Positions 5,991 to 31,200 of a stretch of DNA of 32,000 bases are shown here, piece by piece. The notes under the pieces are model-generated. The model ran no database searches. It was not told the DNA's origin and saw only the letters and a program-made list of their open reading frames with translations. The stretch spans positions 1,500,001 to 1,532,000 of the forward strand of contig NZ_CP015137.1 in NCBI RefSeq assembly GCF_001644705.1, given 5' to 3'. Positions within the stretch are counted from its first letter, which is position 1, and each line of letters begins with the position of its first letter. Source of the DNA: Dickeya solani IPO 2222 (GTDB lineage: Bacteria > Pseudomonadota > Gammaproteobacteria > Enterobacterales > Enterobacteriaceae). The position numbers and the translations under genes were made by a program.

Positions 5991-7454
5991 CTAAGAAGAT
6001 AAAGAGTGGCTTTCTATCAAACTGATTTGTCGTGACAACATCAATGCGGCTTCCTGCATCAACATTTCCCCGATTTCATTGACATGACGAGCACGCCAGC
6101 TTTCATAAGCAGAGCCTTTCACCCACTGATTGAAAGCGCCCAGAGCCGGCCCGCAATGCACCTGATAATCGACTTTGTTTTCCCGATCGCCAGCCAGCGC
6201 CAGGCGCGAGCTATAGGCAAAATACCAGCGAAATACCGCTGCCATTTTACGTTTGGGATGCTCTTCTATTTTCGCCAACACCTGAGGACGGCTCGCCTGA
6301 TAGTATTGCCTGACGTCTTGCCAGACATCGGATAGCGGACGTTTAAAGTACTTGTCTTCGAGCTGCTTTTTAACGACCTGCGGTATCGCTTCCAGCGAAG
6401 CATATTGTTGATAGAGCTGATAAAGTTTATTAGCCCGTGATGGGAAAAACACACCGCGCCGGAGCACCTGAACTTTGGCGCCCTGTTCAAACATATCTCC
6501 GGCCGGAGCATAATCGGTATCCTGAATATTGATACTTTGCAGTAAATCCTTCACCTCATCGCTGGTAGCCGCCTCCACCGAGCACTGATTCACGGAACCG
6601 GTGACAATAAAATCAGCACCAAGCATAAAAGCAGCCATCACCGCTTCCGGCGTACCAATACCACCTGCGGCGCCGATCCTGACTGGTTTTTGGTATCGCT
6701 GGCGGGCCGAAACATCCCGGCAAAGCCGGGAAATGGCCGGGAACAGTACATAAGCATTACCCTGATCGGTGTGGCCTGCCGAATCAGACTCGACACAGAC
6801 ATCCTGAGCCATTGGCACCAAAGGAGCCAGCTCAGCCTCCTGCCCGGTAATCAACCCTTGCTGATATAACCGGGCAACCAGCTCAGGCGGCGCCGGGTGG
6901 GCAAAAACCTCAGCAACTTCGGGGCGTGACACTTTCGCCATCAGCGTATTGGGAATAATAATGCGCTGATCTTCCCCCCGATGAACACCACACAACCGGT
7001 AACGCACTAACGCTGGGGTAATCGCAATATAGGCAGCCGCTTCAATAAAACGAATGCCGTGGGTCAGAAACAGCTCGACCCGCTGCATTTCCTTTTCAGG
7101 GAAATCATAATCTGCCAGCAGATTCATGCCGAAAGACTCCCCGCTCAAATCAGATTGAATCCCTAAAATCGCGTCTTCCAGAACACGAAGACTCAAGCCT
7201 CCTGAACCGAAAAAGCTCATCATTCCGGCCCGCGCCATCGCCACAACCAGCTTACGGGACGCAATCCCCTGATACATCGCACCGCTGACATAGGCATATT
7301 TAATCCCATAATCCTGACGAAACGCCGGACTTCCCAACTGTTCGGCCTGAACACGCTGCTCTTGTCGGCGGTCTACCCCCTGAGGGGGTAGACCTTCACG
7401 GCGTTCAGCCGGCCTCGTTTGTTCAACATGTGTCATCATCGCGCTCTCCCCCAT
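5991..7454 (-). CDS. Trans-acting enoyl reductase, PfaD / FMN-dependent 2-nitropropane-dioxygenase-like family
   Basis: LGSPAFRQDYGIKYAYVSGAMYQGIAS, FFGSGGL and RIGAAGGIGTPEAVMAAFMLGADFIVTGSVNQ are typical of PksE/PfaD-type trans-ERs. The true start may be the ATGATG at 7439/7436, which follows a GGGGGAGAG RBS, rather than 7454. Confidence 0.88.
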   Translation of the reverse strand: MGESAMMTHVEQTRPAERREGLPPQGVDRRQEQRVQAEQLGSPAFRQDYGIKYAYVSGAMYQGIASRKLVVAMARAGMMSFFGSGGLSLRVLEDAILGIQSDLSGESFGMNLLADYDFPEKEMQRVELFLTHGIRFIEAAAYIAITPALVRYRLCGVHRGEDQRIIIPNTLMAKVSRPEVAEVFAHPAPPELVARLYQQGLITGQEAELAPLVPMAQDVCVESDSAGHTDQGNAYVLFPAISRLCRDVSARQRYQKPVRIGAAGGIGTPEAVMAAFMLGADFIVTGSVNQCSVEAATSDEVKDLLQSINIQDTDYAPAGDMFEQGAKVQVLRRGVFFPSRANKLYQLYQQYASLEAIPQVVKKQLEDKYFKRPLSDVWQDVRQYYQASRPQVLAKIEEHPKRKMAAVFRWYFAYSSRLALAGDRENKVDYQVHCGPALGAFNQWVKGSAYESWRARHVNEIGEMLMQEAALMLSRQISLIESHSLSS

Positions 7455-7463
7455 TTAGTCTGT

Positions 7464-8291
7464 TCAGAAAGCGTCGCCTTTCATATCAAAGGGGGGATAA
7501 GCAGGAAAATCTGTCGTCGAAGGGTACTTACTGAAAGTCATCACCTCACGACCATTTGTCAAAACGGTATTGCTGCCACGTAATTCAAACTCATAACTCA
7601 CGTAACTTTGCCCTTCGCCCCAGAGTTTGCTGTGAGTTCTGGTATTAAACGTCGTTCGCAGACGGTCTGGAGATATCACCGCCATCTCATTCGACTCATA
7701 ATTAATAATGATCTCTCTCGGTTTATTGAAATCACTGGTCACCAGAATGTTATAGCTCCCGTAATACATCTGGTTCAGCGGTGTCGCCGTTTCACCGCTA
7801 TGGTTACCGGCCAGAGGAATTCCATTACTATCAAGTACCGAAATGTAGAAACCGCCGTCACGGGCAATCCAGCCTTCGGAGGGTAAGATAGTCCCGGCCA
7901 GCGAATACAGCCGATAATGGCCATCCGGGTTGCCGGTATATGTTTTCAGCTCAATACGTTTTTGAGCCAAGAGCGCCTCAACATCAATACCGAATTCGCG
8001 ATTAAAATAAGCAATCGCCTCTTCTCTTTTTTGTGCTAATTCACTCTCATTCAGCCCCATAATATGGGTGTAGAAATAATCACTGCTGCATAACGTTCCC
8101 TGACACCCGGATATGCCGGGGAATGGTTCAGTATTCGCAATATTGAGCGAGCCGGTCCCCATAAAAACCAGTACCTGCTTAAATCCCATGGGCTTAGGTA
8201 AACGCTCGCCGGCGTGCGCATTAAATGTCATCAAGGCCATAGAGAAAACGGCGATGGCAGCGGCTTTTCGTTTAAATTTATGTAACATCAT
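7464..8291 (-). CDS. Secreted/periplasmic protein of unknown function (Sec signal peptide, no recognised domain)
   Basis: The N-terminus MMLHKFKRKAAAIAVFSMALMTFNAHA|GE has a K/R n-region, a hydrophobic core and an AHA signal-peptidase I site, with no lipobox. A Cys pair (GCQGTLCS) sits near the mature N-terminus. A GGAG RBS lies 8 nt upstream. The gene is packed tightly between the PKS and the ER (gaps of 81 and 9 bp). Confidence 0.7.
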   Translation of the reverse strand: MMLHKFKRKAAAIAVFSMALMTFNAHAGERLPKPMGFKQVLVFMGTGSLNIANTEPFPGISGCQGTLCSSDYFYTHIMGLNESELAQKREEAIAYFNREFGIDVEALLAQKRIELKTYTGNPDGHYRLYSLAGTILPSEGWIARDGGFYISVLDSNGIPLAGNHSGETATPLNQMYYGSYNILVTSDFNKPREIIINYESNEMAVISPDRLRTTFNTRTHSKLWGEGQSYVSYEFELRGSNTVLTNGREVMTFSKYPSTTDFPAYPPFDMKGDAF

Positions 8292-8372: not shown

Positions 8373-11300
8373 TTAAACATCCAAGACCGTCAAGGTCGAT
8401 ATATCCTCTGGCGACAAACGTTCCGCCAGCATTGTTGGGACAGGAATTTCATCCACTGTCAGTTCTGGCTGTTCCACCATCATGTCCAGTAAGACCAGCA
8501 CGTGGTCGGCAAGCATTTGGATCACGTCCGGTGAAAAATAACTACGGTCATACATAAACGGCAGGCTCAGCTTTCCGTGGGTTTTCAGCAAACCAATCAG
8601 CAATGGTGCGACAGGCTCCCTTTCTTCCAGCGACATGGGTAGCAATCTTTGGGCGAAAGTCGTCACCTCGACAAAGGTATCCCGGTCATTACTGTCAATA
8701 GAAAGGCTGCCCAACAGGGTATGGTCGTGGGCATCCAGCCCTTCAGGGGCGAGTTGCTGATGCAGTGCAACAAAATCAAAGTGCTTATATTTCTGTACTT
8801 GCAACAATGCTTCGTCATAAATGCGCCACACTTGCCGCAGGCTGAAATGAGCGTGCAGCGTTAACACCAGCGGAACCGATGAAGAGAAGTCACCGTAAAC
8901 CGGTTCAAATTCATATCGATCCCTGAGGTTATATGCCATCTGAATCGGCATATTTTCTCCGGTGATCCGATACATTAACGTCGCCAGAGCACAGGTAACG
9001 AGTTGTGTGAGCGTGGTATTTTGGCGACGATTTGATGACTGCAACCGATTAAGCATCTCATCAGAGATATCCAGAGAATAGGCACCCGCTTTTTCCGGCT
9101 TCCCATGCTGTTTATCCGGGCTTCTGCTCAGTGCGATCTGTTTATCCCGTAGCGTAAAAGACGTTCGTTTGTCATGTAATTTGCTCAACCAATATCGGGT
9201 CGCTATCTCCTGATGTTCCCCGAACTGACTCAAGGCAAAATGTGCATATTCAGCCGGCGGTTTGGGGCAATAAAAATCGATGCCGTTGCGCAGTGCTTCA
9301 TAGCGGTGATAGAGCTCTTGCAGAAACATGAACAAAGTAAAACCATCGGCATGGAAATGGTGCGTAACAAAGTAAACGGCCCCCAGATCGGCACCGTTAT
9401 GGGCAAGATACAGCTCAAACATCGGCATCCGATCCGCTTGAAACAACTGCGCATTGACTGATTTCTGAAAACCCGCGAATGTCTGTTCAAACGTTTCTCT
9501 GTCAGAAATATAAGGCCAACAGACTTCCCTGCATTCCAGTATTAAGGCGTCATGAACAACCTGTGCCCATTGTTGACCCACGAATTCAGCACCGGTTCTC
9601 AGAATTGCGTGGTGGCGGACCATATCGTTCAGCGCCTGATTCAGCAATGACAGGTCAACCGGCATATCTATCCAAAAGCCCTGGCCGATATTAAAGGTAG
9701 AGCGCTTTTTCACCTCGGTCTCATGCAGAATAAATGCCTGAATATGGCTGACCGGATAGTAGCGAACCCCCGTCTCTAAACACGACCATAAGCAATCTGG
9801 CCGCTTCACGCGATCAAGCGCATCCCCGGCACGCAGAGCGTTTCGGTAGAACTCAAAACGAAAACCTGTCGCTTCTTTCCAGACGCCGATTCCCTGCTGT
9901 AATAGCAGGCTTAATTCAGTACGGCCCAACGTCATATCCTCGACAGGCGCTGCCGCCAAAGGTAAAGCCAGCGAGACCGACTGAATAAACGCCGGGCGAT
10001 TCTCCGGCATAGCATTGAGGGACACGTGCTCCGACGCCGACGCTGTGGCGAGCGGATAATACGTAGAGAGCGAGGAATCGTGAGCGGTATTTCGTGGACG
10101 ATGGGCAATAACCCAGGCAATCTCCCCGGCAATCAACCGAAGCGATTCTTTCGTCAGCAGATGGGCATCAAACTCAGTAACAAAAGCTGAATTGATCCTG
10201 TTTAGCAGACGTAGTCCCAACAGTGAATCGATACCGTAGCGGGTTACCGGTTCATCCAGATCAATTTCGGCGACAGACAAGCCGGCCAGCTCCGCCAGCA
10301 TACCTGTCAGTTGTTGCGCCAGTTGTTGCGGTACTTCTGCCTGTTGTGATGCTGCCTGTTGCTTCGTTTGGAAATCGGTTGCCTCTTGGCGTAATGCCCC
10401 GGCAGGTCCCTTCCGGACGGCACCGGCCCAGCACAGACGTTTGTCAAAAGGATACCCCGGCAGCGATAACGGGAATTTTTCCGCCGGAGAATAGGCCTGA
10501 TCCATACGGATTTCAGCGCTGAAGTCAGGAGAAAAAAAGTCGACCCCATTGGCATATAACCGGGCCAGAGCCAACAGATTATCGCGGTTTGTCGGAGCGT
10601 GAACCGCCTGACGAACATGTGCAACAGCGGACGAAGCCTCGTTCCCGGCTAATAACTGACGGCCCGAGCTGACTTTACCCTGATAGCCGTTGTCCTCCTG
10701 AGTCAATGCTGCCCCGGCTATCACCTTATCCAGAAAAGAGTGCAATGCATTGGCGTCGGAAACCACACAGGCACACCGATATGAGAAATGACTACGGCGC
10801 AATAATAGGTTTGCTGACAGTTGTTTCAGATCCAACCCATGCTGAGCCCGCATAAAATCTTGCAGATCCCGACAGCGTTGCTGCAAAGCGCGCTCACTCT
10901 TTCCAGACAGCACAATAAACACCGGCGGTTCACCACCGTGCGCCGGTGACTCTCCCTGTAGCGATGATGCGTTCGAAGAGATATTTTCTGGAGACCACTC
11001 TCGTCCCTCCCGATTTTTGTGAGGTTCAGCCACAACAAGGTGAACATTGATCCCCGTCGCCCCTAACGAGCTGATCGCCGCCCGGCGAACCTGTCCAGAG
11101 TCGACCGTCCAGGGAACGGTTTTCGAATTGATATAAAATGGACTTTGTTCCAGCGGTAGCAAAGAGGTCCGGTCTTCCGTATTCGGCGTTCCGGGAATGG
11201 TCCGATGCCGGAGCGCTAACAGCACTTTGAATAGATGATTCATCCCCGCACTGTGGAAAGCATGGCCGATGTTGTTCTCAACGCTCCCCAGCGCACAGAA

Positions 11301-14300
11301 TGGCTGCCTGCCTGATTGAACCAGCCCACCATTCTGCCGAAAGACGTTTGTCAGCGATTCAACTTCTGCGGCATCCGCGGCAGGCATCCCGGCGGCATGG
11401 GCTTCGACCAGAGTGATACTCTGCGGGCGGATATCAAACCGCTGGTATATATCAGATAACAGTTCTTCCTGAGCGCTGGCGCTCGGAGCCATAATCCCAT
11501 TGGTTTTACCGTTGTGATTACTGCCCCAGGCTTCGATCACACCATGAATTCTGTCGCCATCTGCCAGCGCCTGCTGCAATGGTTTTAGAATAACCACGCC
11601 AACAGACTCTCCGGGCATCATGCCAGTGGCATGTGCCGAAAACGCACAGCCACGGTCAGCCGGAGACAACAGTCCGAGACGGGAAGAACTGAGCAACATA
11701 TTCGGTGTGGAATAAATCAGGGCCCCGCCTGCAATCGCCACCTCACACTGGCCCAACACCAGCTGATCACAAGCCTGTGCAACAGCCAACAGCGAAGAAG
11801 CACAACCTGCCTCTACCGTCAGACAAGGCCCTTTCAGGTTCAGGCTGTAAGAGACCCGTCCGGGTACCTGAGACAAGGTAATATTCGGAGCGAAATGCTC
11901 TCCCTCGGCAAAACGTAGCGTATAGTCTCCCCCACTCCCACAGAAAACCCCCCAACGCTTGCCGGACAACGTCTCTGGAATAATCCCCGCATCTTCAATG
12001 GCTTTCCAACTTTCCTGTAAAAACAGGCGCTCACAGGGGTCTAACATTGATGCTTCATGCGGCGATATCTGAAAAAATAGCGGATCGAAATGTTCGACAT
12101 CAGAGAGAAAACCGCCATAGCCGGCATATTCACCATAATTCCCCGGGCTAACTGACCACCCGCGACTCTCCGGTGGCGCGGTAAACGCTGATTGCCCCTG
12201 TTCGAGCAGATGCCAGAAGTCATCGGGATTTTTCGCCCCGGGAAACTGCCCGGACATGCCGATAATCGCGATATGATCTCGGCCCTCCTTACGCGGCTGC
12301 GCTGCCCGTTTCCCGCTTTCACCCGGTGTGGTTTTCCCGGCAGACTTGCCCCGGTAAACCGCCCGACAGCGCTCAGAAATCATTTCAACGCTCTCGCGTT
12401 CAGACAAGAGATGAAAATGATCCCTGGCTTTGGTACGAAATACCTGAGCCCCCGGTAAATAGTGTAGCCATCGCTGACAATGGCTTTCATCGTGAGTCAG
12501 TTCTTCACCCAGAACATGACGATTATTTTCAGCCAGCGCAGACAACTTGCCTTGGTTCTCCGGTCTGTCATCGTATGATGATGTAATCGTCACATAGTGC
12601 AGGTCAATATCATGGGCATTCGGTAACGCGTTCACCGAATAGGCAGCCATAGCTTCGCGGTTGTGTTTAAGGATTTGAGCCATATTCTCAATTTTGTCCT
12701 TCACAACCGATAACGGCTGCTGCACTCCTTTTTTCAGGCACCCTTCAGCCAGCCATGTCACTTGTTTATCTACATCAACACGCATTAATTCCTGTTCGGT
12801 GTAGGCGATCGTGTCAAACGCTATCTGACCTGATGCCAACGCTTCACTCATGCTGTAGTGCAAAAAGAAGTTCGCACTCATCAGTAATGCATCTCGATAA
12901 TAAAACGGTGACGACGCGTGGTTATCCGGCTGCGGAAACGGGGGTTCCAGCAGAATCAGACTCGACACGCTGAACCCTGCCAGTTGCAGCTGTCTGGCCA
13001 TTTCATAGGCAATGATGCCGCCCATTGAATACCCTGCCAGCTCGTATGGCCCGGTCGCATTACTGGCTTGAATGATTTCAATATAGTAACGCGCCATGCT
13101 TTCGATGCTTTCCAGCGGCTGAAACCGGGTAAGAAATCCACGCGACTGAATTCCCCAGATGGCATATTCATCTGCCAGATTTTCAGCAATCTTCAGATAC
13201 AAACCCGTCGAGCCGGTCAGCGGATGAATCCAGAACCGTGAACTTTCAGGCGTCTGTTCATCTTTAATGTGTCTGTCCCGCAGTGGTTTGCTAAGAGGAA
13301 TGCACTCTGGATAGTGTCTCAGCCACGCTCTTTCCGGGCGCTGGCTTTGCAGTCCGGCTATTGTGTTGTCGGATGTCGCCTGCGAATCATCGGCCTCTTT
13401 TTTATCGCCTGTTTCGTGAGCGATAACCGACGCTGCCGCAAATGCGTTTCCCTGCCGGTTGATCGGCGAGGGCGGCATATGGTTGCCAAGATATAAAGAC
13501 AGCGCATCAATACTTGGGTAATCAAAAATGGCGTTGATCGTTAGCCCAGATGCAAACGCCCGGTTAACGGCTTCAATAAAGCCAACCGCATTGATTGAAT
13601 TGAGCCCCAGTTCGGTAAACAGTTGATGGTTCTCGATTTCACTCTCTTCAAAATACAGCGTTTGCATCAGTAAAGAGCGAACCTGACGGGTGATGGCGTC
13701 AAGCTGTGATGTGCCGCTTTTATTCACCGCAGCATCACCCGAAATCACAGCCTTTTTCTCACCAGTAACCGTAGACCGGCTGGTTACCTGGGTCTGAGCC
13801 GTTACCTCGGCAGGTGGAAGATTGGCCCAGTAACGTTTGCCCTGAAAAGGGTAGACCGGCAGACTTATCCGTTGCGGTACTCTCTGCCGCGGTACTCTCT
13901 GTTTCGGTACTATCTGTTTCGGTACTATCTGTTTCGGTACTATCTGTTGCAGCGAGAATGTCTCACGGTATAAATCAAACCAATCCACATTGACGCCGTT
14001 AACCCATGCATCCGCCAGTTCCTGCCATTGTTCCGCGGCGATCCATCCCTGAATCTGGGCAATCTGAGCCGGAGAGTTCTCCTCATCCCATTCATTCTCT
14101 CTTGCCGACCCGGTTACCTCATCGCTGCGTGGTTCGCCATGATAATACGCACCGGGAGCAATATCGCCGCGAATGAACAACGCTAATTTGTCACGCAGCT
14201 CCGTAGTATCAGACACCACAAAAGCCACTCGTTTTGCCATCGCATCTCGCCCGGTTTGCAGGCTATAGGCCAGTTGATCAAGCCGCGTTGCCGGGTGACG

Positions 14301-17300
14301 CTGCAGGAATTGCACAAAGGCCTGAGCATAGGCTTGCAGCGCTGCGGTGGTTTTCGCCGAAATAGGGACGAGCGACGGGCGTGCGGCGATGCCCAACGGA
14401 CGCCGGGCGCCCTCTTTCGGCGGATAGCTATCCGTTCCTGTTAAAGATTCGGGGTCATCGGCAATGTATTCTTCAATCACCGCATGAGCATTGGTGCCGC
14501 TGATCCCCGTCGCGCTGATTGCGCCAAGCCTGGGCTGCTTGCCCTGACGCAACCAAGGTTGATTCTGTTGGTGAATCGTAAAGGGAGTCCGCTCTAATTT
14601 AATGTAGCGGTTACAGGTATCAAATCTATGGGTTGCCGGAATCGTCTGATGAGCCATCGCCTTGAGCATGGCAATGAGGCTCACGACACCGGAAGCGGCA
14701 AAAGTATGCCCAATTAAGGGTTTAATCGAGCCTAAAACACAGCGATGCGAATCGCTGCATCGGCCGGCAAAGGCATCGGTGAGCGCCTGAACCTCAATCG
14801 GGTCACCCAACTGAGAACCGGTGCTGTGGGAAATCACATAGTGAATATTTCCCGGGTCAATCCGGTATCGGTCATAAATATTTTTCAGCAGTTCAGCCTG
14901 GCGAACCGGGTTCGGCGCCGTGATGCCATTGGTTTTTCCATCGTAGTTCACCCCGCTGGCTTTGATGCAGCCATAGATTCGATCGCCATCGGCTTTGGCT
15001 TTTGACAACGGTTTGAGTAAGACTACTGCGACAGCTTCTCCCAGAACCAGCCCATTTGCGCGTTGATCAAACACGCTGGCCTTGCCGTCGGGAGAAAGCA
15101 TTCCCGTCCGGTTCATACTCTGGTACACCCACGGAGTCATCAACAGATTGATTCCTCCGGCCAGCGCCATCTCACAATCCCCCTGACGCAGCGCCAGACA
15201 CGCCTGATGAACAGCAACTAACCCTGATGCACAAGCGGCTGTGAGGGCCATATTCGGGCCTTTCAGATCCAGCGCATAAGAAATACGCGCTGCCAGGGTC
15301 GCATTTTGATTACCGTTTATCGACCCCTGATCGCCGACAATAGCGCCATAATCACTCTCTTCCGCGCCGACATACACACCACAGGACATTCCCCGGATGC
15401 GTTGCCCCATATAGCCGGCATCCTCAAACGTGTGCCAGGCTTCCTGCAGGAAAATGCGCTGCCTGGGGTCCATATCCATCGCGTCTTTTGGCGCAATATC
15501 AAAAAATGCGGCGTCAAATTGCATGATATCCGTCATGAAAGCGCCCCATTGCGGGAGCGTTTCATGCTTATCCCGATCTTCTGACGATCCAGACGGCATG
15601 CTATCGGTGACAGACTGCCAGTCCCAGCGCGGTCCTGACATCTCACCAATACAACTTTCTCCCTGAATCAGTTTCTCCCAGAAGTCATCAATATTATCCG
15701 CCTGCGGAAAACGCCCGCTCATCCCAATCACGGCAATCGGCTCATCCATGACGTCTGAAGCAACCGTGTTGGTTGCCGCAGGAGCCGACTGATGATTCTC
15801 CGTGGTTGTCTTCATCTGCCCGAGCTCGTGGCCCGACGTTGGATTGACGTCTTCCCGCTCGACAGTCAGGTGATTGCTGTCAACTAGCGGGGACATGCTG
15901 ACGGTGTCCGTCTCCGGCGACACCTGACGCGAAAACATGGCATCTAAAGCCTGTGCATGTTCACGACAAAAATATTCCGTCAGCCGTTTAACCGATGAGT
16001 GACCGAAGAGCACAGCAGGCGTGATTTCAACATCAAAATATTTACTCAACTCCCGGGAAAATGATGCCAGCGAGATCGAGTCAAAACCAAAATCAGCAAA
16101 ACTGCTATTCAACCCGATCCGGTCAACCGGCGTGCCCAGTAACCGGCTAATCTGCGTTTTCAGGACGTTACTCACTTCTGTCCGCATGCCTGTCGCATCG
16201 GCGGGCAGCGGTGCACTATGCCCTCCGGAACGCGATGCCGTCTCATGGTCGTGTTTTTGCCCCGCATCACGGATAGCCGCTTGATTGGCGATATCTCCCT
16301 TGCCGCTTACCGGATGATGTTCGGTACGTCCGGCTACCGGCTGTTCTTTCAGCCCCAGAAACCGGGCAACACGACTGGGTTTTCCGGCCATCACCAGATG
16401 TTGCCCTTCGCTTTGCCGCAGCAGTTGTTCAAACACCAGCAACCCTTCTTCGCTTTCAAGGGCGCGTTGGCCACTGGACCTGAGATAAAATTCGGCGCTA
16501 TCCCTGTCACGGATGCCCATTTTCCCTTCTTTCCAGAAAGGCCAGTTAATAATCAGTGTTTTACCACGAAGTTTGCCTTGTTGAACCTGCGCCATCCGGT
16601 GTTTGCCATACCCCATCTGGAAACGGTTCCCCATGGCGTAATCACAAGAGCCAAAATCGCCTAAGAACGCGGCGCTGGAGGAAAAATAACAGACAAAATC
16701 CAACGGGTCCTGCATCAGCAGTTCGTCTAATAATTGCGTCCCTTCAACTTTCGGCCGAAGAATATCTTTGAACGCCTGGCGGGACTTCTCAAATACCGGT
16801 TCACTGGCTTCCAACCCGGCGGTGTGGATAACACCGAGGATCGGCCCCATCAATTGTCTGGCCTGTACCAGATTGAAACGCATGGCGCCGACATCGCAGA
16901 CATCGGCCTGGATATAATGTACCTGCCCCCCCAATTGGGTCAGTTCATCAGCAATCGCTTTGCGGTCTGTATCCATCGCTGAACGCCCGGTCAGTATCAG
17001 CCTGGCTGAATACTGCTGTGCCAGATATCGGGCAAAAATTAATCCCAGCCCACCGAATCCGCCGGTGATCAGGTAGGTTCCTCCTTGTTTAATCCCTGCC
17101 TCTGCCACCGCTGGCTCGGCCAGAGAAACCGGACTGGGTTGAACTTTCAGGATGTATCGCTCGGTGCCTTCATAGCAGACACTTTCGAAATGTTGCCCCG
17201 TCAGCTCCTGATAAAGTATTGATACATAATGTTTAGTGAAAACCGATTGTTTAGTGAAGACCGACTGTTTAGTGAAAACCGGCTGCCCGGTAAACGTCGC

Positions 17301-20300
17301 TTGTTCTCCGACCATACCGGATCCCGGAGCAACACTAACGGCAACCGCACATTGGGTTTTAGGTAATACGGAGGTCAGGGAACGTTCGATACCAATCCAT
17401 GACTCCAGATAAGCACGCTCCAGCGAATGGTGGCTGACACCAGCCAGCAGTAAGCGAGCCGGAGCCATGTTTGTCGCAACCATAGAAGACAACAGCACAT
17501 GTAGCGCGGCGAAGTCTTGTATCTGACCACGCGCCTCCAGTGGCCATAGATATAAAATCGCACTGTGTTGAGGTTGTATCCCGGCAGATTTCAACTGTGC
17601 AAAACAGTGCTGATAACTTTCGGTGTTTTCCTGCGTTGTATCTTGTTGTGGCAGATGAAAACCGCTCACCCCCTCTTCCAGCGCAAGGCGGGATACGAAC
17701 ACAATCGCTGTCTGTGGCGCCAACGCTTTCATCTGAGATTGCAGCAAACGCTGACTTTCCGGCTCCGACAAAAAGCAGATCAAGGTTTTAAACCCATGAT
17801 CTTGCGGGGATGTTGCCGGATGAGGCATCTTCTGCCAGGACTCGGTAAACAACATCAGCGCTTCACGCTCTTCTTGATGCGCTGATTCCGAAGTCAATGC
17901 AGTAGGGGATGATGTATCGGCAGGTGAGGTATCACGAGCAATCCGGCCCAGATCTTCCGGCGCCTGAATCCAATGCCTCTCTCTGGCAAACGGATAACCT
18001 GGCAGGCTGATACGACAGGGCGTCGCTATCGGGTATAGCTGATACCAGTCCACATGAAAGCCTTCCGTCCAGAACCGGGCAATCTTGTGAACGGCATTTT
18101 GTTCTACCCAGCGATGAAGCAGAGCGGTGCTGTCATCTGCTGACATAAATCCCGTATCCCGGCCACTTTCCCTACCGCCACCGCCACGCCAGCAGCGCTC
18201 AGGTAAGACGTCATCCTCGGCAAATGCGACCAGTTTTTTCTGTAACTCCCTGAGATCCTGTACGACAAAAACCACCCGCTCTTCCAGAACCCGCCGTCCA
18301 ACTTGCAGCGTGAAAGCCAGATCCGCAGGATGAATGCCGTCGATATCCGGGTGAGTCTCCAGGAACTGTGCCAGATTTCGGGCCATAACCCGAAGCCGCT
18401 CTTCATTTTTTGCCGATAAAGGGACAATTTTTGCCGATAAAGGAACGTCTTTCGCCGATAAAGAGGCAACCAGCGGCGTATTGTGCCGTTGACTGTTCTC
18501 CGATCTCCGGGAGAGGTGTGGCAGAAACTCTTCAACAATCAGGTGTGCATTCGACCCGGTGGCGCCAAACGAGCTGATCCCCGCCCGCCGCGGGACGTTG
18601 ATCTTTTCGCCTTCTTCGCCCACCGTCGGTTGCTCCCAAGCCTGGGTTTCACGCTGAATATAGAAAGGCGAATTATCCAGTTCCAGGTAAGGGTTAACCT
18701 GCTCTGAATGTAACAGTGAAGGAACCAGTGTCTTATGATGCAACTGGAGAATAACTTTGCTTAGCCCACTGATACCCGCCGCCGACTCAGCATGGCCGAT
18801 GTTCGATTTAACCGAACCGATCGCGCAAAACTGTTGGTCTTTCGTGTGTTGTCTGAAGGCTTTCACCAATCCCTGAACTTCGATCGGATCGCCCAGCGCC
18901 GTCCCCGTACCGTGCGCTTCGATATAACTGATGGTTCGTGGGTCAATTCCGGTTTTTTCGTAGCAACGCAACATCAAATCAGCCTGTGCAACCGGGCTTG
19001 GTACCGTAATCCCGCTCACTTGCCCAACGTGGTTGATGGTGCTGCCCTTGATTACCGCATAAATATTGTCCCGATCCTTAACCGCCTGCGACAGCGGTTT
19101 GAGCAATACAGCCCCCACCCCTTCGCCAGAGACAAAGCCATTGCCGCCGTCACCGAAAGTTCGGCAACGACCATCGGTGGAATACATATCGGCCAGCCCA
19201 TAAGTCATATACTTATAGGGATGCAACGACAGGTTTACCCCGCCGGCTAATGCAATTTTACTTTCTCCTCTGTGCAGACTTTCCAGAGCCAGATGCAACG
19301 CGGTCAGGGATGAAGAGCACACCGTATCTACGGCAAAAGAAGGGCCGTGGAAACCGCAGAAATAAGAGACTCGGTTAGCAATGGGGGCATAATTCATCGA
19401 TAGCGGCATTACCTGACCGCGATTGACGATTTCAGACGCGATCAAGGCGTAATCATTATGCATTACCCCAACAAAAACACCGACATCACGGCGCTTATTA
19501 AGCCCCTGTTCTGCAACCAGCGTCTCCGGGGTGTAGCCCGCATCTTCGATTGCCGCCCAGCATGTTTCCAGAAATAATCGTTCCTGAGGATCTAACCACT
19601 GCGCTTCTCTGGGAGAAACCCGGAAAAACTGTGCGTCAAAACAGTCCACATCCTCGATAAATCCCCCCCATTGAGGAATCGGTCGGCCAGAAGGCGACGT
19701 AATGCCATCCAGCACGCTTTTCTGCCATCTCGACCCAGGAATTTCGGTCACACAGTCCTTACCGGCTTTGAGATTCTCCCAAAACTCAGCCATATGTTTC
19801 GCACCGGGATAGCGCCCTGACATCCCGATCACCGCAATATCTTCGCTTTCCGATGCGTTCTGTATGATTGATGATGAATGGGAAGCGGCCTGCCTGGCGT
19901 TTATCGGCTCACTACCGGCCTGATTGATGCCTGCTGAAATGCCCGAATCCGGTAACGTACCCGATGCCAACTGATGCGCGTTGTCCCGTTCTGTGACCGT
20001 TGCAACATCAGGCGCCATGTCGGCAAGCGACCTGAACGATTCCGGGTACCGTTCCAGCAGATACTCGGCCAGTGCACCGACGGTGGCATATTCAAACAGT
20101 AAAGTCGGATTCAGCTTTACCTTGAGCGACTGTTCCAGTGACTGCACCATTTGCAACAGTCCCGCCGAATCCAACCCCAACTCGTAATAACCGATATCGC
20201 TCTCGATCTCTTCCGTGCTTTTCGCCAACGTATCGGCAAGTATCTTTTTCAGAATATTTTCAGCACGTTCCAATGCTGAATCATTCTCATCCGACGATAT

Positions 20301-23300
20301 GGATAAAGTCTCAGATGCCACAGGCAGGGTTCCATTCTTCATAGGCACAACTGGTTTGATAGGCATAACGGCAGACTCAGCGACCTGAGCCGCACGGGTT
20401 CTTGATGCGTTGATAGCCGCAGGGTCACGCACTCGCTTACAGGTGAAATTTTTCAGCTCACCAATCTTTTCACCGCCTGGCTTAAAAAATTCCATAGTCA
20501 GGTAAGAGAGTTGCTCGGTTTGCTTCAGTGATGCACGGCTGACGCGGGTAATACAGTGTCCCGACAGCGGTTCTGACGCGCGGAAAGACTCGTAATAAAG
20601 CGGCAAAAATATATCCTGCGCTTTGTTTTTCTCCAGAAACAGATCCCCGGACCCGATAGCACTACCGTCAATCAGAACCGGGTGAAACAGATAATGTTCT
20701 GCGCCGAAGAGTGATTCGTCTGGAACCGCAATATCGATCAGGTTTGCCGAAGGCAGGTGATAGATAACGCCGTCGCCGACCATCGGCCCGCAGTGACGGA
20801 TATCTTCTCCACCAAATTCCACATACGCGTCCTGCAACCTCATCTGACTGATTGCTGTCTTTTTCAACCCATCTACATCAAGTGTTTCATTAAATACCGA
20901 CACCGGAACTGGGTGCATTTCCGCACTCATATACAGCTTCAATCCTGACTGCTGTTGATCATCCGATACTTCCCGGCCTTCAACTTTCAGATGCCAGTAC
21001 CCTTGCGTGCTCTTTTGACAGCTGATTTGTGCATCCACCCCATAGTCATCACCGATAGTAAAGGGGTAATGAATCGTTAGGTTGCGCATTTCCAGTTGGC
21101 GGTAATCCATGCCCTGCCGATGGAAAAACTGAAACAGCAGATCGATGTATGCCAGTCCGGGCAGCAGCGATTGCCCAAACGCCTGATGGTTATGCAAAAT
21201 GCGGTGATGGTGGTTAAAAGGTTGACTCCAGGGGTGATTTTCCGTGAAGAACCCCGCACGGCCGATGGGGTAACGCCCCTCTTCAATGAGGTCGCCGTCG
21301 CCAGCGCTTTTTTCAGCCACGCCGGCTTCAGATGCAGGCAACGGGGCACGAAAGACGTCTTTCGCAAATACATAGCCGGGCAAATGAATTCGCGCTGGCG
21401 GTTGCAGATAGAAACTTTGCCAGTCAACCGGTTTTCCCTGCAGCCAAGCCTGTCCAATCGCTTCCAGTTCGGAACGGGACAATGAGTGTAGACGGCGATG
21501 TTGATAAGCATCGGCGGCCAGAGCTTGTTGTTTTCTTCCCGCAATCGGGGCGTGCCCGAAAAAATGATCCGTCGATATCTTCTGACGGCAGAATGCCTGT
21601 AACTGTTGCAGACAGTCGCGATGATCTTTTGCAATCAGAAAGAAGCGTTCTGGCATCGCTTCCCGTCCGACCTGCAACGTATAGGCTATTGATTGTATAA
21701 AGGACAAGGCATCATCGTCTGGTCCGCTATTTTGCCAGTCAGTACGTTGCCGATCCGCATCTTCAAGGTAAGCACACAGTCCCTGAATCTGAGCTTGCAG
21801 ACTTTGCGTCGTTTTGGCCGATAACGGAATAATCCAGCCTGCGGTAACCGGTTCAGTTGCTTGTACCCGATCCGGTAAATACTCTTCGATGACCAAATGT
21901 GCATTGGTCCCGCTGTGACCGAAAGAGTTCAGGGCTGCCAGTCGCGGCCTGTCTGCGTGGTTTTTCCACACGGACGTGGTGTTTTGAATATAAAAAGCGG
22001 AATCTTGCAACTCAAATAACGGATTTATCTGCTGATAATGCCTTAAGCCCGGTAGTTGACGATGACGCATCGACAACAATATTTTGATAAGCCCAATCAC
22101 TCCAGAAGCTGCCGATGTATGGCCAATATGAGATTTCACGCTACCCAGAGCACAATAATGCTGCTTGTCGGTTAATGCCTTAAATGTTCGCGCCAGGGCA
22201 TTGACCTCAATGGTATCCCCCAATTTACCGCCGGTAGCATGAGCTTCAATGTAACTAATCTCTTCAGGATTGATGTGGTATTTATGGTAGACCTGCTCCA
22301 GTAATTGTTGCTGAGCCGTTCCACTCGGAGCCGTAATACCGTTGCTCGCTCCATCCTGATTCATTCCAGAGGCACGAATCACCCCGTAGATGGGATCGCC
22401 ATCCGTGATAGCCTGATCAAGACGTTTCAGTGCGACTATCCCGATCCCTTCAGATAACAGCATGCCGTCGGCCATCTGCTCAAAAATGGGACATTCTGCG
22501 CGATGGGACAACATGCCGATACTGGACAAACTTGCCAACGCCCCGGCATCCAAAGCAGCGAAAACACCACCGGCCAGCGCCAGATCCGTCTCCCGGCGGC
22601 GCAGACTTTCACAGGCCAGATGTATCGCCACCGCAGAAGATGAACAGCCGGTATTCACAACCAGCGCCGGACCTTTCATATCCAGAAAATACGACACACG
22701 TGATGCAATAATCGCTTCAGACGAGCCAACAAAAGAGCCCTGATGGTAATTCGACGGTTCCGCACCAATAAAAACACCCGTATTGGTGCCAGCCAGAACC
22801 TTGGGGTTATAGCCCGCATCTTCCAGTGCTTTCCAGCTTTCTTGTAACACCAATCGCTGATGTGGACTCATCGACAACGCATCCTGATCGGTAATCCGGA
22901 AAAATTTCGCATCGAAGCAGTCTCTGTCTTTAACGATCCCCCCCCATTTGCAATAGGTTTTTCCGCTCTGCGTTGCGTCTTCTTTACCTGTATCGACTTT
23001 GTCTGTGTCGACTTTGTCTGTATCGACAAAATATCTGGTTTGATCCAGATAATGTTCGGGTAATTCTTCAATACCTGAACGATGTGCAGCCAGGTTCTCC
23101 CAAAAATGCCGGGTATCCTCAGCACCGGGGAACTGCCCTGCCATACCGATCACCGCAATTGCAGCCGGTTCGATTGGCCCCTTTTCTGGTGTCGGCCCCG
23201 GATCATTTATGGACGCTGGCAATGTGGCAGACGGCGACACCGCTGCAGGCTGCGGGGCGGGTTCCAACCGCGGTTGCAATTGCGGCTGAGGTTGAGAGGG

Positions 23301-25298: not shown

Positions 25299-28200
25299 TG
25301 ATCAGCCTCCTGCCGTGTTTGTCAGATGAAGATTGTTTGTCAGATGAAGATTGTTTGTCAGATGAAGATTGCTTGTCAGATGAAGATTGCTTGTCAGATG
25401 AAGATTGCGTTGATGACAGTTGACGTTGATGACTCAAAAGAACGGACTCATGCGGATGCAGGTTCATCAGTTGCTGTACCGGAGCAGAAGCATTCAGGGA
25501 CACCAACTGCTGCAGGCGTCCCTGCTGTAACAGCGTGGCAAAACGTTCAAAACAGGCAAAACCATCCGCATCGCTCAGAGCAAAAATACTCTGGCTGGCT
25601 GGCAACCCGGCAAGAGAGGCCTGCCAGAATCCCCAGTTGATAATCCCGACGGGAAAATCGGCGCGATGCTGTAAAGCACGCACCAACGTGTCGGAGAAAG
25701 TAATCCCGGCAGCATAAGCCGACAGCGTCGCGGCACCGGAGAAAGAGAAAGCCTGACAGGAAGAGAAATAAACCAGAAAATCCAGTGCTTCGTGCCGGAG
25801 CGCCTGATAGAAATTGAGACTTCCTGACGCTTTGACCTGAAGTATCCGCCAGAACGTCTCTTCCGTGGTCTGGCTAATGGTATTCTCGGCATCAAAGACC
25901 AGACCAGCGAATATCGCGCCATTGATGCGGGAATATTTCCGCTTGATCTGTACCACCGCAGCCTGCAGGGAGGCCAGATCCGTCGCATCCGCCTGAAGAT
26001 AATCCGGCCGGATACCGACGGTTTCCATCGCATCCAGTTGGCTCTGAACCGCAGGACTGGATGCAGGCTGACGTCCCAGCCAAATCACTTTTGCCTGATA
26101 ATGCTGCAGCAACTGCCGGGTCATCACACTGCCCACAGTCCCGCTGCCTCCCAGAATCAGGTATACACCGCCATGCTTGATACCATTCTCATCACTGAAA
26201 CTGTGAGGATCCAAGCGGAAGAAGGTTTGTCGGTAGCGACGTCCAGAAAGCAACCGAATCTGTTCGCCCCGTTCGCTGACCGCTTCATTGACGATCTGCT
26301 GCAGGAGTTTCTCCCGCCGCGCCGGCGTCTGCAGATCGCGTCTGGATACATCCAGATTTCTGACTCTGAAACGGTGATCCCCTTGGGCAACGGAGTAAGC
26401 CAGACCACTTATCCCGGCGCCGTGATAACGAACTTCCCAGGCAGATAATGGGTGGTTATCCTGCGTGATCACGGTAAGGTCTATCGTGGCATCTTTCGCT
26501 AACCCTTGTTGTAACGATTTCACCAGCCGCAGCAGTTGCAGTTCGTTGCGCTTCAGACTGGCCGTGACCGCGTCTGCATCGGCCAGATCCTGAGCTGAGC
26601 CGTCGCCGGCAATAAAGTCGCCAGCAATAAAAAAGACATGCTGTATCGCTCCCGCCGCATCCAGACAATGACCTATCGCTTTTTCATCCTGAATATCACA
26701 TGCCCAGTGATCCGGCCCAATCGGGTGCGTCTTCCGCTCGGCATCGCTGCCCAGAGAGAAACGCAACAGACGTTTGGCCTGACCGGTCAGTTTATCAACG
26801 AGCGCTTTTTCCAGTTCAGTTTCCTGCCGGCTCCCGACAACCAGAACCTTATCCGCCATTCGCGTTGCACTGATTCTGACAGGGGGGTTGTCATCCGATT
26901 CCCATAGCGCGACATAGCTGAAATAATCATCAGGCCTTGTCTTCTCCCTCACCATCGGAAGATGTCGCTCCGCCGAGTGCATCGGCAAGGTGGCTGGCGC
27001 GCTGATCTTTACATCAGTCGGCAAAGCAGTGGGATGCGGCGGCACATTCATTGCCACATGACGAGCCATCGCCGCATGACGGGCATTTTCGATCCAGTAT
27101 CGGTCGGTGGCGAAAGGATAAGTCGGTAAGCTGATCCTTTTTGGTCGCTGCTGCGGATATAACCGGTACCAGTCAACCGGCATCCCCCTGACCCATAGCT
27201 CCAGGAGCTTGGCGTACTTATGCTTCTGGAACCAAAGATCAAGCGTGGCCGCCATGTCTTCATCTGCCGCAACCACGGCCAGCATCTCTTTATTCTGTCT
27301 GACATTACCGAGAAAAAGATCATCAATGACGTCTTCTCCGCCCAGAAATTCTCTAAGCTTTTCAGCCAGCTCATCAATAGACGAGGTAAGAATTCCCAGA
27401 CGCTGTTCCATCGCATCCCGTCCGACCTGTAGGGTGTAGGCCAGTTCATCCAATTCCGGCTGTGATTTATTTTCTGCCGTAATTCGGGTTAGAAGATTCC
27501 CCGCTGCCGCCATGAGACGCTCGGTGCTTTTTGCCGAGAGAATGATCATGGAGGGTTCTGATTTGCCTATCCCCGGACCGGCATCGGACTTTTCCTTCCC
27601 CCCGGTATACTCTTCCAGCACGATATGCGCATTGACCCCACCAAAACCGAAAGAACTGACCCCGGCCCGGCGAGGCAGCACCTGTCCCTGCACATCCACC
27701 GGCGCCACCCAGGGCCTATTCTCCCGTACCACATAGAAAGGAGAATCTTCCAGCTTGATATAAGGATTCAGCTGTTCAGCGTGTAAACTTTTCACCAGAG
27801 TTTTATGCTGAAGTTGCAATAACACTTTGATCACGCCAGCAACGCCGGCAGACATTTCCAGATGACCAATATTCGTCTTAACCGAACCCAGACCGCAGTG
27901 TTGTGGATTGTTCCCCAGATCGGTTGTCGCTGGCGTCTTGCGGTATAAATCCTGAAAAGCGCTTTTCAGCCCATCAATCTCTATCGGGTCACCAAGCGGC
28001 GTACCTGTACCGTGCGCCTCAATGTATCCAACACTACGCGGATCGATCCCTGCTTTGGTATAAGCTCGCTTCAGCAAAACCGTTTGCGCTTTCGGATTCG
28101 GCGCCGTTAATGAGTTGGCCCGACCACCGTGATTTTCAGCACTGGCCCGAATCACACCATAAATATGATCCCCCGCCGCTTCAGCGACACTGAGCTTACG

Positions 28201-31200
28201 GAGAAAGAGCATACCGACCCCTTCTCCCCGCACATAACCGTTTGCCGCACTGGAGAACGTCTTGCAACGGCCGTCCTGACACAGCATTCCCGCTTTACTG
28301 AAGCTGATATAACCATCGGGGGTCACCAGCGTACTCACACCGCCGACAATGGCTTGTTCACATTCACCCGCGCCGATAGACTGCACAGCCCGATGAATCG
28401 CAATCAGTGATGAAGAGCACGCCGTTTCTATCGGCTCACTGGGGCCGTGAATATTCAGGAAAAAGCTCATCCGGTTTGGCCCGACCGAGGGAACGATACC
28501 CGTCAGAGAATAACCTTCGATCGGACGCTGGGCTTCTGAGATAAGGCTACCGTACCCACTCATGCCGGTTCCCACGAAAATCGCCGTGTCAGTACCGGAA
28601 ATCTCACCGGCGCTGTAACCCGCATCTTCAATGGCGTTCCAAATGTAGGTCATCAGTAATCTTTGCTGGGGATCCATCAACTCAGCTTCTTTCGGCGAAA
28701 TTCCAAAAAACAGGGGATCAAATTCATCAATACCCTCAATGAACCCTCCCCATTTCACATTGGATTTATTCACTTCACGAACCGGATCGCCATACAACGC
28801 CTGCCAGTCCCATCGCTGTTTCGGAATCTCCTGAATACAATCTTTTCCGTTGACCAGATTGTTCCAAAACGCGTCCAGATCCCGGGCCATCGGGAAACGG
28901 CCGCTCATTCCCACAATCGCTATCGGCTCAATCTCATGGGCAGTTGATTTTATAGATAATTGTTTTTTATCAGATAACTTTCCGGGAAGAGCCTGATTCA
29001 AACGCCCCCGCGCTCGAAGCGTGTCGCGCTGAGAGGGATCATCGTTTAAAGGGAATTCATTTATCGCTTCTTTCGCTTGCGGCTCTCCGGCATCTGCTGA
29101 CTCCGGAGACACGATTAACGCCGGCTGCACGAATGATTCATGCTCAGGAAACGGGTTTAAGAATGCTGCCGGATGTACTTCTGCCAGATAATCAACAAAC
29201 TCGCCCAACGTTGGATATTCAAAAAACACCGTCGGCGTCAGCGTCAGACGGTATTGGCGATTCAGTTGGTTGCTAAACTCTGTCAGCAGAATAGAATCCA
29301 GACCAAACTGAGACAGTTCAGTATTGAGATCGATCTGCCCTGGCCCCAGCTTGCGTAACCTGGACAGTGATTTTTGCATCAGAGGGATCAGCTTTTCCCG
29401 CAGTTTCTCTTTCGCTGTACCCGCCGTCGGTGCCGGTGCCGCCATTGGGTTATCAGTTTTGAAGGCGGGCTCATTCGTTTCGGGGACCGCTATCCTGGTT
29501 TTAGCCTCAGTTTTAACCTCAGTTTTAACCTCAGTTTTAACCTCAGTTTTAACCTCGGTTTCAGCCTCCGAGCTGACAGAAACAGCCGATTTCACGGCTC
29601 CAGCAGGCGCATCGTCAACCACCCTGGACGAAAAACCACTGAGTCTGACCCAGACATTGCCTGCCTCATCACATAAGTCATAATCCATTTTTCTGACTCT
29701 GTCGGCTTTAGATGACCCGGCTTTAAACCGCGCCCAGACCCAAAGGCTCTCGGGTAACGCAGCGGCGTTATCCCGCGGGAACATTTCCAGACTTTCCAAA
29801 GCAAACGGCAAGGCAAACTCAGGGTGCTCAGCATCCACCAACAAGCCCGCCGCTATCTGTAATGCCGAATCCATCAGGCTCGGGTGCAGGAAAAACTGAC
29901 GGCGGGTATCCGCTACGCACGCGGGTAATCCAATTCTGGCAATAGCCTGAATGTCGCCTTCATCGATCGATATCACGCCCTGATAAGCCGGGCCATGAAG
30001 GATGTCCATCGCCGTATAGGCGCGATAACATGCCGAGCTGTCCAGGCTTCTGGTGGTACACTGGGTCTGCAAAGCGCGGATATCGACCGGTAATGGTGTT
30101 GCCGGAGTAGAAACTGACTCCCCGTCATCAGGCAACGCTGTTACTCGGGCCTGCCCCCGACAATGTGTGATTCTGCCGGCCCCTCCAACAGCAGAATCCT
30201 CGCTGTAGATCTCAAAACTGATGTGGTCGTTATCTTCAGGACACAGATCGATAGACACGGTCAATCCCGCCGCCTGAACGCTCATCGGTCTCACCCAACT
30301 GATATTTTTCAGCATTATCTGGCTGGCATGACCTGCAGCATCAGTGATTGCGGCTCTGGCTAATTCCAGATAGGCAACCCCCGGCAGAACGTTCTGTCCT
30401 TTAACAACATGGTCAGCCAGAAAAAATTCGTGCCCGGTAAAAAAACTGCGGTAACGCTGGGTAGCGAAATCTGACGTGTTTTGCTGCACAAGCGGGTGTA
30501 TTTCTCGCAGCATCCGATCTCCACGAGAGTCCGGGGGCGATATCGCCGCGGTATCTGCCTTACTCCAGTAATGTTCAAGGTGGAAAGGATACCGAGGCAG
30601 AGAGCGTTTACTAAAACCAGACGTACCGAAGATCTGGGTCAGTGGGAAATCAACGCCTCTGACCCAGAGTTCCATCAGAAAACCTTTGTCATTCTCCCAG
30701 TCCAGCGTTTTCAGCAACTCAGACAGCCGGTTATGGCGGGTAAATATATCAAGCGCCTTATTTTCATCTTGCTGTCCGGTTTTCAGGTAGTAAGACTTCT
30801 GCCCATTGGCAGCAATAAACTGGGTCAGCTTATCCTGTAAATTGTCGATGCTGGTGTAACGGAAGACCGCCCGCTGATCAAACTTGTTTCTTGCCGTCAG
30901 ATAGAAATATTCCAATGCTCCGGGGTGAATGTCATGGGATTGCTGCAAAAAGGCCAGAATAGATTCAGCATAGTGAATCCACTGCCATTCATGCATCGTT
31001 GACAGCGCCAGAAAATACACATCACCCTGCGGCTCATCACCGACGGCTTTTCTATGCGCGTGGAGATCGGCGGAGCGGGGATATTCCTCCAGCAGCAAAT
31101 GGGCGTTAACACCGCCGGCGCCGAAGTTATTAATCGCGGCCCTGCGGGGAATTTCTTTGCCGTTATCATCCAGCAGAGGCGGCCACTCTTCTGTCATGTT

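Follow-up and report, generated by a model that had tools for sequence, protein, structure and literature searches.

The window analyzed here, the whole stretch of 32,000 nts from Dickeya solani IPO 2222 (contig NZ_CP015137.1, positions 1,500,001 to 1,532,000), is the 3′ end of the oocydin A/haterumalide (ooc) gene cluster, running from a partial oocR to oocW. It holds the last ~32 kb of the cluster, and oocB to oocQ lie outside. Our subject is a thioesterase (TE) domain inside the polyketide synthase (PKS) encoded by oocS, which is followed in frame by a ketosynthase (KS), an acyl carrier protein (ACP), and a condensation (C) domain. A first-pass annotation, made from the letters alone, took this arrangement for two chain-release catalysts in one protein. 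The features on which the argument depends are the following, with residues numbered as in OocS.

8373..25298, reverse strand: oocS, 5,641 aa, trans-acyltransferase (trans-AT) PKS (ORF list, translation, and Pfam)
13479..13694, reverse strand: ACP just upstream of the TE, about residues 3869-3940 (Pfam PP-binding; phosphopantetheine Ser3901 in LGLNS)
12354..13241, reverse strand: the TE domain, candidate TE-B, residues 4020-4315 (PF00975; match to 7r0x)
12279..12353, reverse strand: TE-to-KS linker RGKSAGKTTPGESGKRAAQPRKEGR, 25 aa, residues 4316-4340 (13 of the 25 residues are K, R, or G)
11019..12272, reverse strand: last KS, about residues 4343-4760 (Pfam ketoacyl-synt; Cys4499, His4634 in HAAG, and His4682 kept)
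10104..10328, reverse strand: terminal ACP, about residues 4991-5065 (Pfam PP-binding; Ser5025 in GIDS)
8442..9761, reverse strand: terminal C domain, residues 5180-5619 (PF00668, E = 1.3e-38; HHFHADG at 5313-5319)

Over the whole protein, Pfam gives the order methyltransferase (MT)-like, ACP, ACP, KS, dehydratase (DH), ACP, KS, ketoreductase (KR), ACP, KS, ACP, TE (the candidate TE-B), KS, ACP, C. The C-terminal half has three PP-binding stretches. Pfam identifies no AT domain in the 5,641 residues of OocS, and discrete AT genes lie downstream; thus, OocS is a trans-AT PKS. The ACP at 13479..13694 is expected to be the carrier that presents the 3-hydroxyacyl intermediate discussed below. After the TE, the reading frame continues for ~1,330 residues, which make up the KS-ACP-C extension.

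Identity of the TE domain

The Pfam match to Thioesterase (PF00975) has an E-value of 5e-26 and 92.7 bits, against a gathering cut-off of 26.4, and the KS, PP-binding, and Condensation matches follow downstream in the same frame. A TE inside a megasynthase with KS-ACP-C behind it, as the first-pass annotation had described, is therefore what the protein contains. The nucleophile Ser4091 (GYSMGG) is encoded at nt 13026-13028, Glu4118 (LILLEPP) at nt 12945-12947, and His4294 (RDHFHLL) at nt 12417-12419. Glu4118 is found at Ser+27, where canonical TEs have the Asp of their triad, and it aligns with the Asp of the solved TE 9f7b. A script check placed these three residues, together with Cys4499 of the last KS and His5314 of the C domain, exactly where that annotation had them, and its limits for the TE and for the K/R/G-rich linker agree with those listed above.

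What type of TE is this? Among solved structures, PDB 7r0x (titled "Polyketide synthase", 364 aa) matches the TE with E = 1.3e-177, and 260 of the 339 aligned residues are identical (77%), including the motifs GYSMGG, LILLEPP, and DHFHLL; the next structure match comes only at E = 8e-22. A canonical releasing type I TE is the last domain of its protein and uses Asp in the triad, whereas the TE of OocS is not the last domain and has Glu. A type II TE is a discrete protein, whereas this one is fused into a 5,641-aa ORF, and the type II TEs RifR and YbtT match it weakly (E = 1e-4 to 1e-3). The features that we do observe are those of the TE-B of OocS: a Ser/Glu/His triad, the high identity to 7r0x, and an internal ACP-TE-KS arrangement in the penultimate module, which is then followed by KS-ACP-C. 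NCBIfam has no specific model for the TE-B domain. A homologue search with the TE returned short TE fragments only, and no OocS orthologues, and an exhaustive HMMER search was used instead (see below).

The Serratia orthologue and a proposed role

The OocS protein of Serratia contains a TE and a nonribosomal peptide synthetase (NRPS) C domain (PMC4552970). In Serratia plymuthica A153, changing GYSMG to GYAMG or HHFHADG to HHFHAAG abolishes oocydin A production in each case (PMC4552970), and both of the motifs mutated there match the window letter for letter. The Ser-to-Ala TE mutant and the C-domain active-site mutant that the first-pass annotation had suggested making have, in other words, already been made in this strain. 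As summarized in PMC12979598, the TE-B of OocS belongs to the penultimate module and O-acetylates a 3-hydroxythioester intermediate without thioester hydrolysis; it takes various acyl-CoAs, with the exception of malonyl-CoA. The same summary describes TE-B domains as monofunctional and reports that ACP-bound acyls are not processed. As for release, the account in PMC11260071 has the ACP-C didomain of OocS natively offloading the chain by macrolactonization, and the terminal ACP-C, transplanted by itself to a different module, offloading in the same way. PMC6174933 and PMC7586987 do not mention the TE.

We consider it very likely that the segment at 12354..13241 is a TE-B ("branching") domain, that is, an in-line O-acetyltransferase of OocS, the last PKS of the oocydin A/haterumalide assembly line, and that the C domain performs the release. 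Judging from the domain order, the KS-KR-ACP module would leave a 3-hydroxyacyl thioester on the line. In the penultimate KS-ACP-TE-B module, Ser4091 would then be acylated by acetyl-CoA, by extension from the summarized work on the Serratia orthologue, and the acetyl group would move from TE-B to the 3-hydroxyl of the ACP-bound chain to produce the O-acetyl branch of oocydin A. As TE-B is reported not to hydrolyze the thioester, the chain would stay on the enzyme. It would next go through the final KS-ACP to the C domain (HHFHADG), which, following the published descriptions, would release it by macrolactonization.

The D. solani TE is an orthologue of a domain that has been characterized biochemically and, probably, structurally. 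Acetyl transfer, the lack of hydrolysis, and macrolactonization by the C domain would carry over to D. solani on the strength of the 77% TE identity and the shared cluster context. OocS would thus combine a single tailoring acyltransferase, which uses a TE fold, with a single release catalyst, and the claim of two chain-release catalysts is not supported: in the published summaries, TE-B works without hydrolysis (PMC12979598) and release is assigned to the ACP-C (PMC11260071). The suspicion that the TE has a non-standard role, on the other hand, was well placed, given that the orthologue is described as an in-line O-acetyltransferase (PMC12979598).

The identity of the domain, the conservation of its catalytic residues and of the fusion, the orthology, and the synteny are direct observations. 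Several points count against the proposed role. The mechanism comes from summaries of the work of Hemmerling et al. and Fraley et al. (both 2022) given in later papers (PMC12979598, PMC11260071), and the O-acetyltransferase activity is known from the Serratia orthologue only, so that it would apply to D. solani by analogy. The structure 7r0x is probably that of the OocS TE-B, as the match itself and the title of Fraley 2022 suggest, and our literature search found no paper citing the code 7R0X. Finally, elongating and translocating KSs do not appear distinguishable by sequence for the last two KSs, given that Cys-His-His is present in all of them. The substrate of the TE (how long the chain is, and where its hydroxyl lies with respect to the thioester) therefore rests on the literature statement.

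The motif scan for KS residues covered all four KSs of OocS. Each keeps Cys-His-His, and the last two have the unusual HSTG and HAAG. We considered calling these two non-elongating from their motifs, and made no such call, as the three catalytic residues are kept throughout.

Conservation of the TE-KS fusion

Is the junction between the TE and the last KS a local accident? In a contig scan covering one genome per species, the only relative found is Dickeya oryzae ZYY5, which has the same TE in one continuous ORF and the same genes downstream. The two TEs are 90% identical, with a dN/dS of 0.18 and no indels; dN/dS is 0.11 for the last KS and 0.24 for the C domain. The TE-KS linker of D. oryzae ZYY5 is in frame, has the same length, and is 68% identical.

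Within D. solani, the 3′ 2.9 kb of oocS plus the downstream genes (6.8 kb) are identical base for base in two NCBI assemblies, and a product of 5,641 aa is called in several assemblies, including one of those two. In the MK10 assembly (CM001839.1), oocS is split, with called products of 4,789 aa and 891 aa, through one extra A in a run of five (A5) at ~nt 11018; this position falls where the last KS ends, away from the TE-KS junction. This extra A is probably a homopolymer sequencing error; it could also be a real frameshift or a phase variant in a strain that is reported to make oocydin A. The in-frame conservation in these assemblies, in D. oryzae, and in the distant proteins described next indicates that the cassette is old and widespread, and not a local accident.

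Distant relatives and the Glu/Asp pattern

An exhaustive HMMER search with the TE against 1.84 billion representative proteins gave 21 proteins at E ≤ 1e-30 and 3,745 at E ≤ 1e-10. The best 24 of these matches were annotated with the domains of the window, and the nucleophile of every TE in them was identified together with the residue at Ser+27. In 22 of these 24 closest relatives, the related TE has an internal position with a KS behind it. Twelve of these show the complete TE-KS-ACP-C order, mostly with a further terminal TE: one is P0023 (64% identical), and at least 11 are more distant. Pfam confirms the order in P0028 and P0036.

The acid position is occupied by Glu in all 22 internal TEs of the 24 relatives (in one of them at Ser+26), each of which is followed by ~900 or more residues, and also in the TE of the window. 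All 17 terminal TEs have Asp, even though some of them belong to the same polypeptides as Glu-type internal TEs. The replacement of Asp by Glu, which the first-pass annotation had pointed out for this single protein, thus generalizes, and in this sample Glu at the acid position marks the internal TE clade. A much broader statement, that the Glu-for-Asp triad is a diagnostic signature of a large and mostly uncharacterized clade of internal, non-releasing TEs present in many orphan trans-AT PKSs, in TE-KS-ACP-C(-TE) cassettes as well as in starter modules of the GNAT/AprA-like type, strikes us as doubtful. The Glu/internal pattern may in any case be already in Hemmerling 2022 or Fraley 2022.

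The relatives vary in their arrangement. In P0024, P0025, P0028-P0030, P0032, and P0034-P0037, the TE(Glu)-KS-ACP-C is followed by one or two Asp-type terminal TEs. Where TEs come after the C domain, the C domain is not the last one of the line, and it may not be the release catalyst there. A single protein, P0025, combines two Glu-type internal TEs. In P0038 and P0040 (and, by sequence, also in P0042, P0044, and P0045) a Glu-type TE stands ahead of the first KS and just behind an ACP and a loading region of the GNAT or AprA-like MT-GNAT type; on domain order, it sits in what looks like a starter module. We know of no description of the role of a Glu-type TE in such starter modules.

Alternative explanations

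That TE domains normally release chains, and that the Ser-His-acid triad of this one is intact, might suggest two release routes: the TE would divert some of the chains, by hydrolysis or cyclization, into a shorter product, and those read through to KS-ACP-C would give a second one. The existence of oocydin congeners (PMC11260071) would fit such a scheme. We nevertheless give it a very small chance. The Serratia orthologue is summarized as acting without thioester hydrolysis (PMC12979598), and the TE and C point mutants both lose oocydin A, a result more in keeping with two essential steps in sequence than with alternative exits. Moreover, the domain belongs to the Glu-type, consistently internal clade, while the terminal TEs of the same proteins are Asp-type. 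The branching assembly line that the first-pass annotation had envisaged is not supported, on the same grounds, with an orthologue that does not hydrolyze and with TE and C both essential for one product.

A TE with an internal position and an intact triad could also be an editing domain that acts in cis, similar to a type II TE, and clears mis-primed or stalled acyls from the neighboring ACP. Such a domain would be expected to be dispensable, or to enhance the rate only, whereas the Ser-to-Ala mutant abolishes production; hydrolysis is reported absent in the PMC12979598 summary; and an AT2-type domain is already available in the cluster, in OocV. For this AT2, proofreading was considered from its clade relatives PedC and KirCI-AT1, and acyl transfer was favored (PMC4552970). 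We regard editing as highly improbable. The first-pass annotation had proposed an editing or transacylating TE, and only the transacylating half of that proposal is borne out, by the orthologue as summarized; the reported absence of hydrolysis and the loss of product in the Ser-to-Ala mutant speak against the editing half.

A third possibility keeps the acetyl transfer and changes its source. Instead of using acetyl-CoA, the TE would transfer an acetyl made on the line, where the last KS would decarboxylate a malonyl carried by the final ACP, so that the KS-ACP after the TE would be an acetyl-donor module. The TE-KS-ACP-C cassette does travel together in at least 12 distant proteins, and some relatives adjoin GNAT-type loading regions. 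Against this, TE-B is described as accepting CoA thioesters and not ACP-bound acyls (PMC12979598), and the grafted ACP-C alone is described as offloading by macrolactonization (PMC11260071), which leaves a line-made acetyl with little more than a token probability.

Finally, a recent fusion, or an assembly or frameshift artifact, would have joined two proteins, a normal PKS that ends in ...ACP-TE and a separate one with KS-ACP-C. Both are ideas of the first-pass annotation, and the split oocS of MK10 (4,789 + 891 aa) might seem to lend them support. Conservation refutes them for practical purposes: that split lies away from the TE-KS junction; the same 5,641-aa product is called in several assemblies, and two assemblies equal the window over the 6.8 kb compared; D. 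oryzae ZYY5 has the junction in frame and with no change in length; and the TE-KS-ACP-C order recurs in P0023 as well as in 11 or more proteins that are more distant.

Comparison with known systems

The closest known system to the in-line O-acetyltransferase proposed here is the TE-B of Serratia plymuthica OocS, which shares the cluster, the architecture, identical GYSMG, LILLEPP, and DHFHLL motifs, and the HHFHADG of the C domain. It differs in the host, which here is Dickeya, in ~23% of the TE residues, and in that the biochemistry comes from the Serratia copy. Canonical terminal TEs such as those of human FAS, EntF, and Pks13 share the alpha/beta-hydrolase fold and the GxSxG motif, and match the N-terminal half of the domain at E = 1e-14 to 1e-5. 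They are C-terminal, have a Ser-His-Asp triad, and release the chain, whereas the OocS TE is internal, has Glu, and has an orthologue summarized as not hydrolyzing.

For the C domain, there is a parallel in enacyloxin biosynthesis, where a condensation-type domain and not a TE off-loads the polyketide; this domain, Bamb_5915, is a separate protein and makes an intermolecular ester. In contrast, the C domain of OocS is fused and, as described in PMC11260071, macrolactonizes.

Other TEs are also used for O-acylation. FosTE, of the fostriecin PKS, is like TE-B a PKS-integrated TE that O-acylates the beta-hydroxyl of a line-bound intermediate from a CoA thioester (PMC12979598). Unlike TE-B, FosTE is bifunctional (malonylating and lactonizing), uses malonyl-CoA, and has the triad Ser159-Asp186-His281, while TE-B is summarized as monofunctional and not accepting malonyl-CoA, and has Glu here. 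Sln9-TE, TrsA-TE, NecA-TE, Cong-TE, and Ela-TE, together with ThiA-TE, also use the TE fold for O-acyl transfer (PMC12979598). These six differ from TE-B in that they add side chains to finished macrocycles or join assembly-line monomers, and do not transfer a small acyl from CoA in the middle of the line.

The rest of the cluster

The TE domain of OocS, in this cluster and genus, has been on record since 2012-2015. The other features of the window that we annotated are as follows.

25291..31971, reverse strand: oocR by position, 3′ part (DH, ACP, KS, KR; ORF list and Pfam)
7464..8291, reverse strand: oocT, 275 aa, without a Pfam or NCBIfam match
5991..7454, reverse strand: oocU, trans-acting enoylreductase of the PksE/DifA type (Pfam FabD_helical_ins and NMO; role from PMC4552970)
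3962..5881, reverse strand: oocV, tandem trans-AT, AT1-AT2 (Pfam Acyl_transf_1, two stretches; PMC4552970)
2763..3893, reverse strand: oocW, single trans-AT (Pfam Acyl_transf_1; PMC4552970)
1995-2711, reverse strand: Sfp-type 4′-phosphopantetheinyl transferase (PPTase), directly after oocW
13866-13948, 17230-17285, 18407-18463, 22988-23027, and 24094-24134: tandem repeats in oocS

In the published cluster, OocJ, L, N, R, and S are PKSs, OocT is a hypothetical protein, OocU is trans-enoylreductase-like, and OocV and OocW contain two ATs and one AT, respectively (PMC4552970). The gene order downstream of oocS in the window is the published OocT-OocU-OocV-OocW, which supports the identification as ooc. 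Two other Dickeya clusters, those for zeamine and solanimycin, were considered and rejected on account of the gene order and the motif identity with OocS. The connection to a strain shown to make oocydin A comes through D. solani MK10; over 6.8 kb, the DNA of the assemblies compared is identical to the window or differs from it by one base. In an exact-sequence look-up, the oocT product is identical to a product of MK10 (GCA_000365285.1), and it is found in many other assemblies; the accession GCA_000365285.1 is assigned to strain MK10 in PMC10204066.

The oocT gene adjoins oocS in both D. solani and D. oryzae, and its deletion leaves bioactivity as in the wild type (PMC4552970). At the other end of oocS, the oocR stop and the oocS ATG overlap by 8 nt (25291-25298), which suggests translational coupling. 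The word "phosphopantetheinyl" is absent from the main text of PMC4552970, and the Sfp-type PPTase may not be counted in the ooc cluster as described. The GC content falls from 63-66% (nt 1-2000) to 47-55% (nt 2001-32000), and the high-GC part corresponds to a pyruvate:ferredoxin oxidoreductase-type gene at 9-1895 on the plus strand. This step at ~nt 2000 resembles the boundary of an island gained horizontally, and it fits the published view of horizontal transfer of ooc.

Within oocS itself, the MT-like domain (Methyltransf_12, E = 3e-17) is at the start of the protein (~24400-24850, residues ~150-360), with two tandem ACPs after it, and this region recurs in the relatives P0023, P0025, P0034, and P0039. 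The five short tandem repeats listed above are in frame, have units of 15-21 nt in 2.7-5.5 copies, and encode the interdomain-linker peptides QIVPK, SVFTKQ, PLSAKxV, VDTDK, and LTAEV. In the alignment with D. oryzae, the region of the QIVPK linker shows a gap of 24 residues on the D. oryzae side.

What the finding means

The finding of the TE is correct, and it is already known. The first-pass annotation had named a characterized PKS with the ACP-TE-KS-ACP-C order and an explained function as something that would refute it, and one exists, so that the window itself holds nothing new. The novelty that remains is outside the window, in the family-wide Glu/internal rule and in the uncharacterized contexts of the relatives. 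A TE fold reused as an in-line O-acetyltransferase, with a C domain that macrolactonizes, goes against the textbook, but it is published. The product of the pathway, oocydin A, is a macrolide active against fungi and oomycetes that comes from Serratia and Dickeya associated with plants.

For annotation, the lesson is that an internal Glu-type TE followed by a KS should be taken neither for a chain terminator nor for an assembly error. The Glu-versus-Asp rule could help genome-mining tools to tell tailoring TEs from releasing TEs. And if the broad form of the rule, doubtful as it is, were to be true, in-line O-acylation, or some other chemistry that does not release the chain, would be much more widespread than oocydin, as the one example, indicates.

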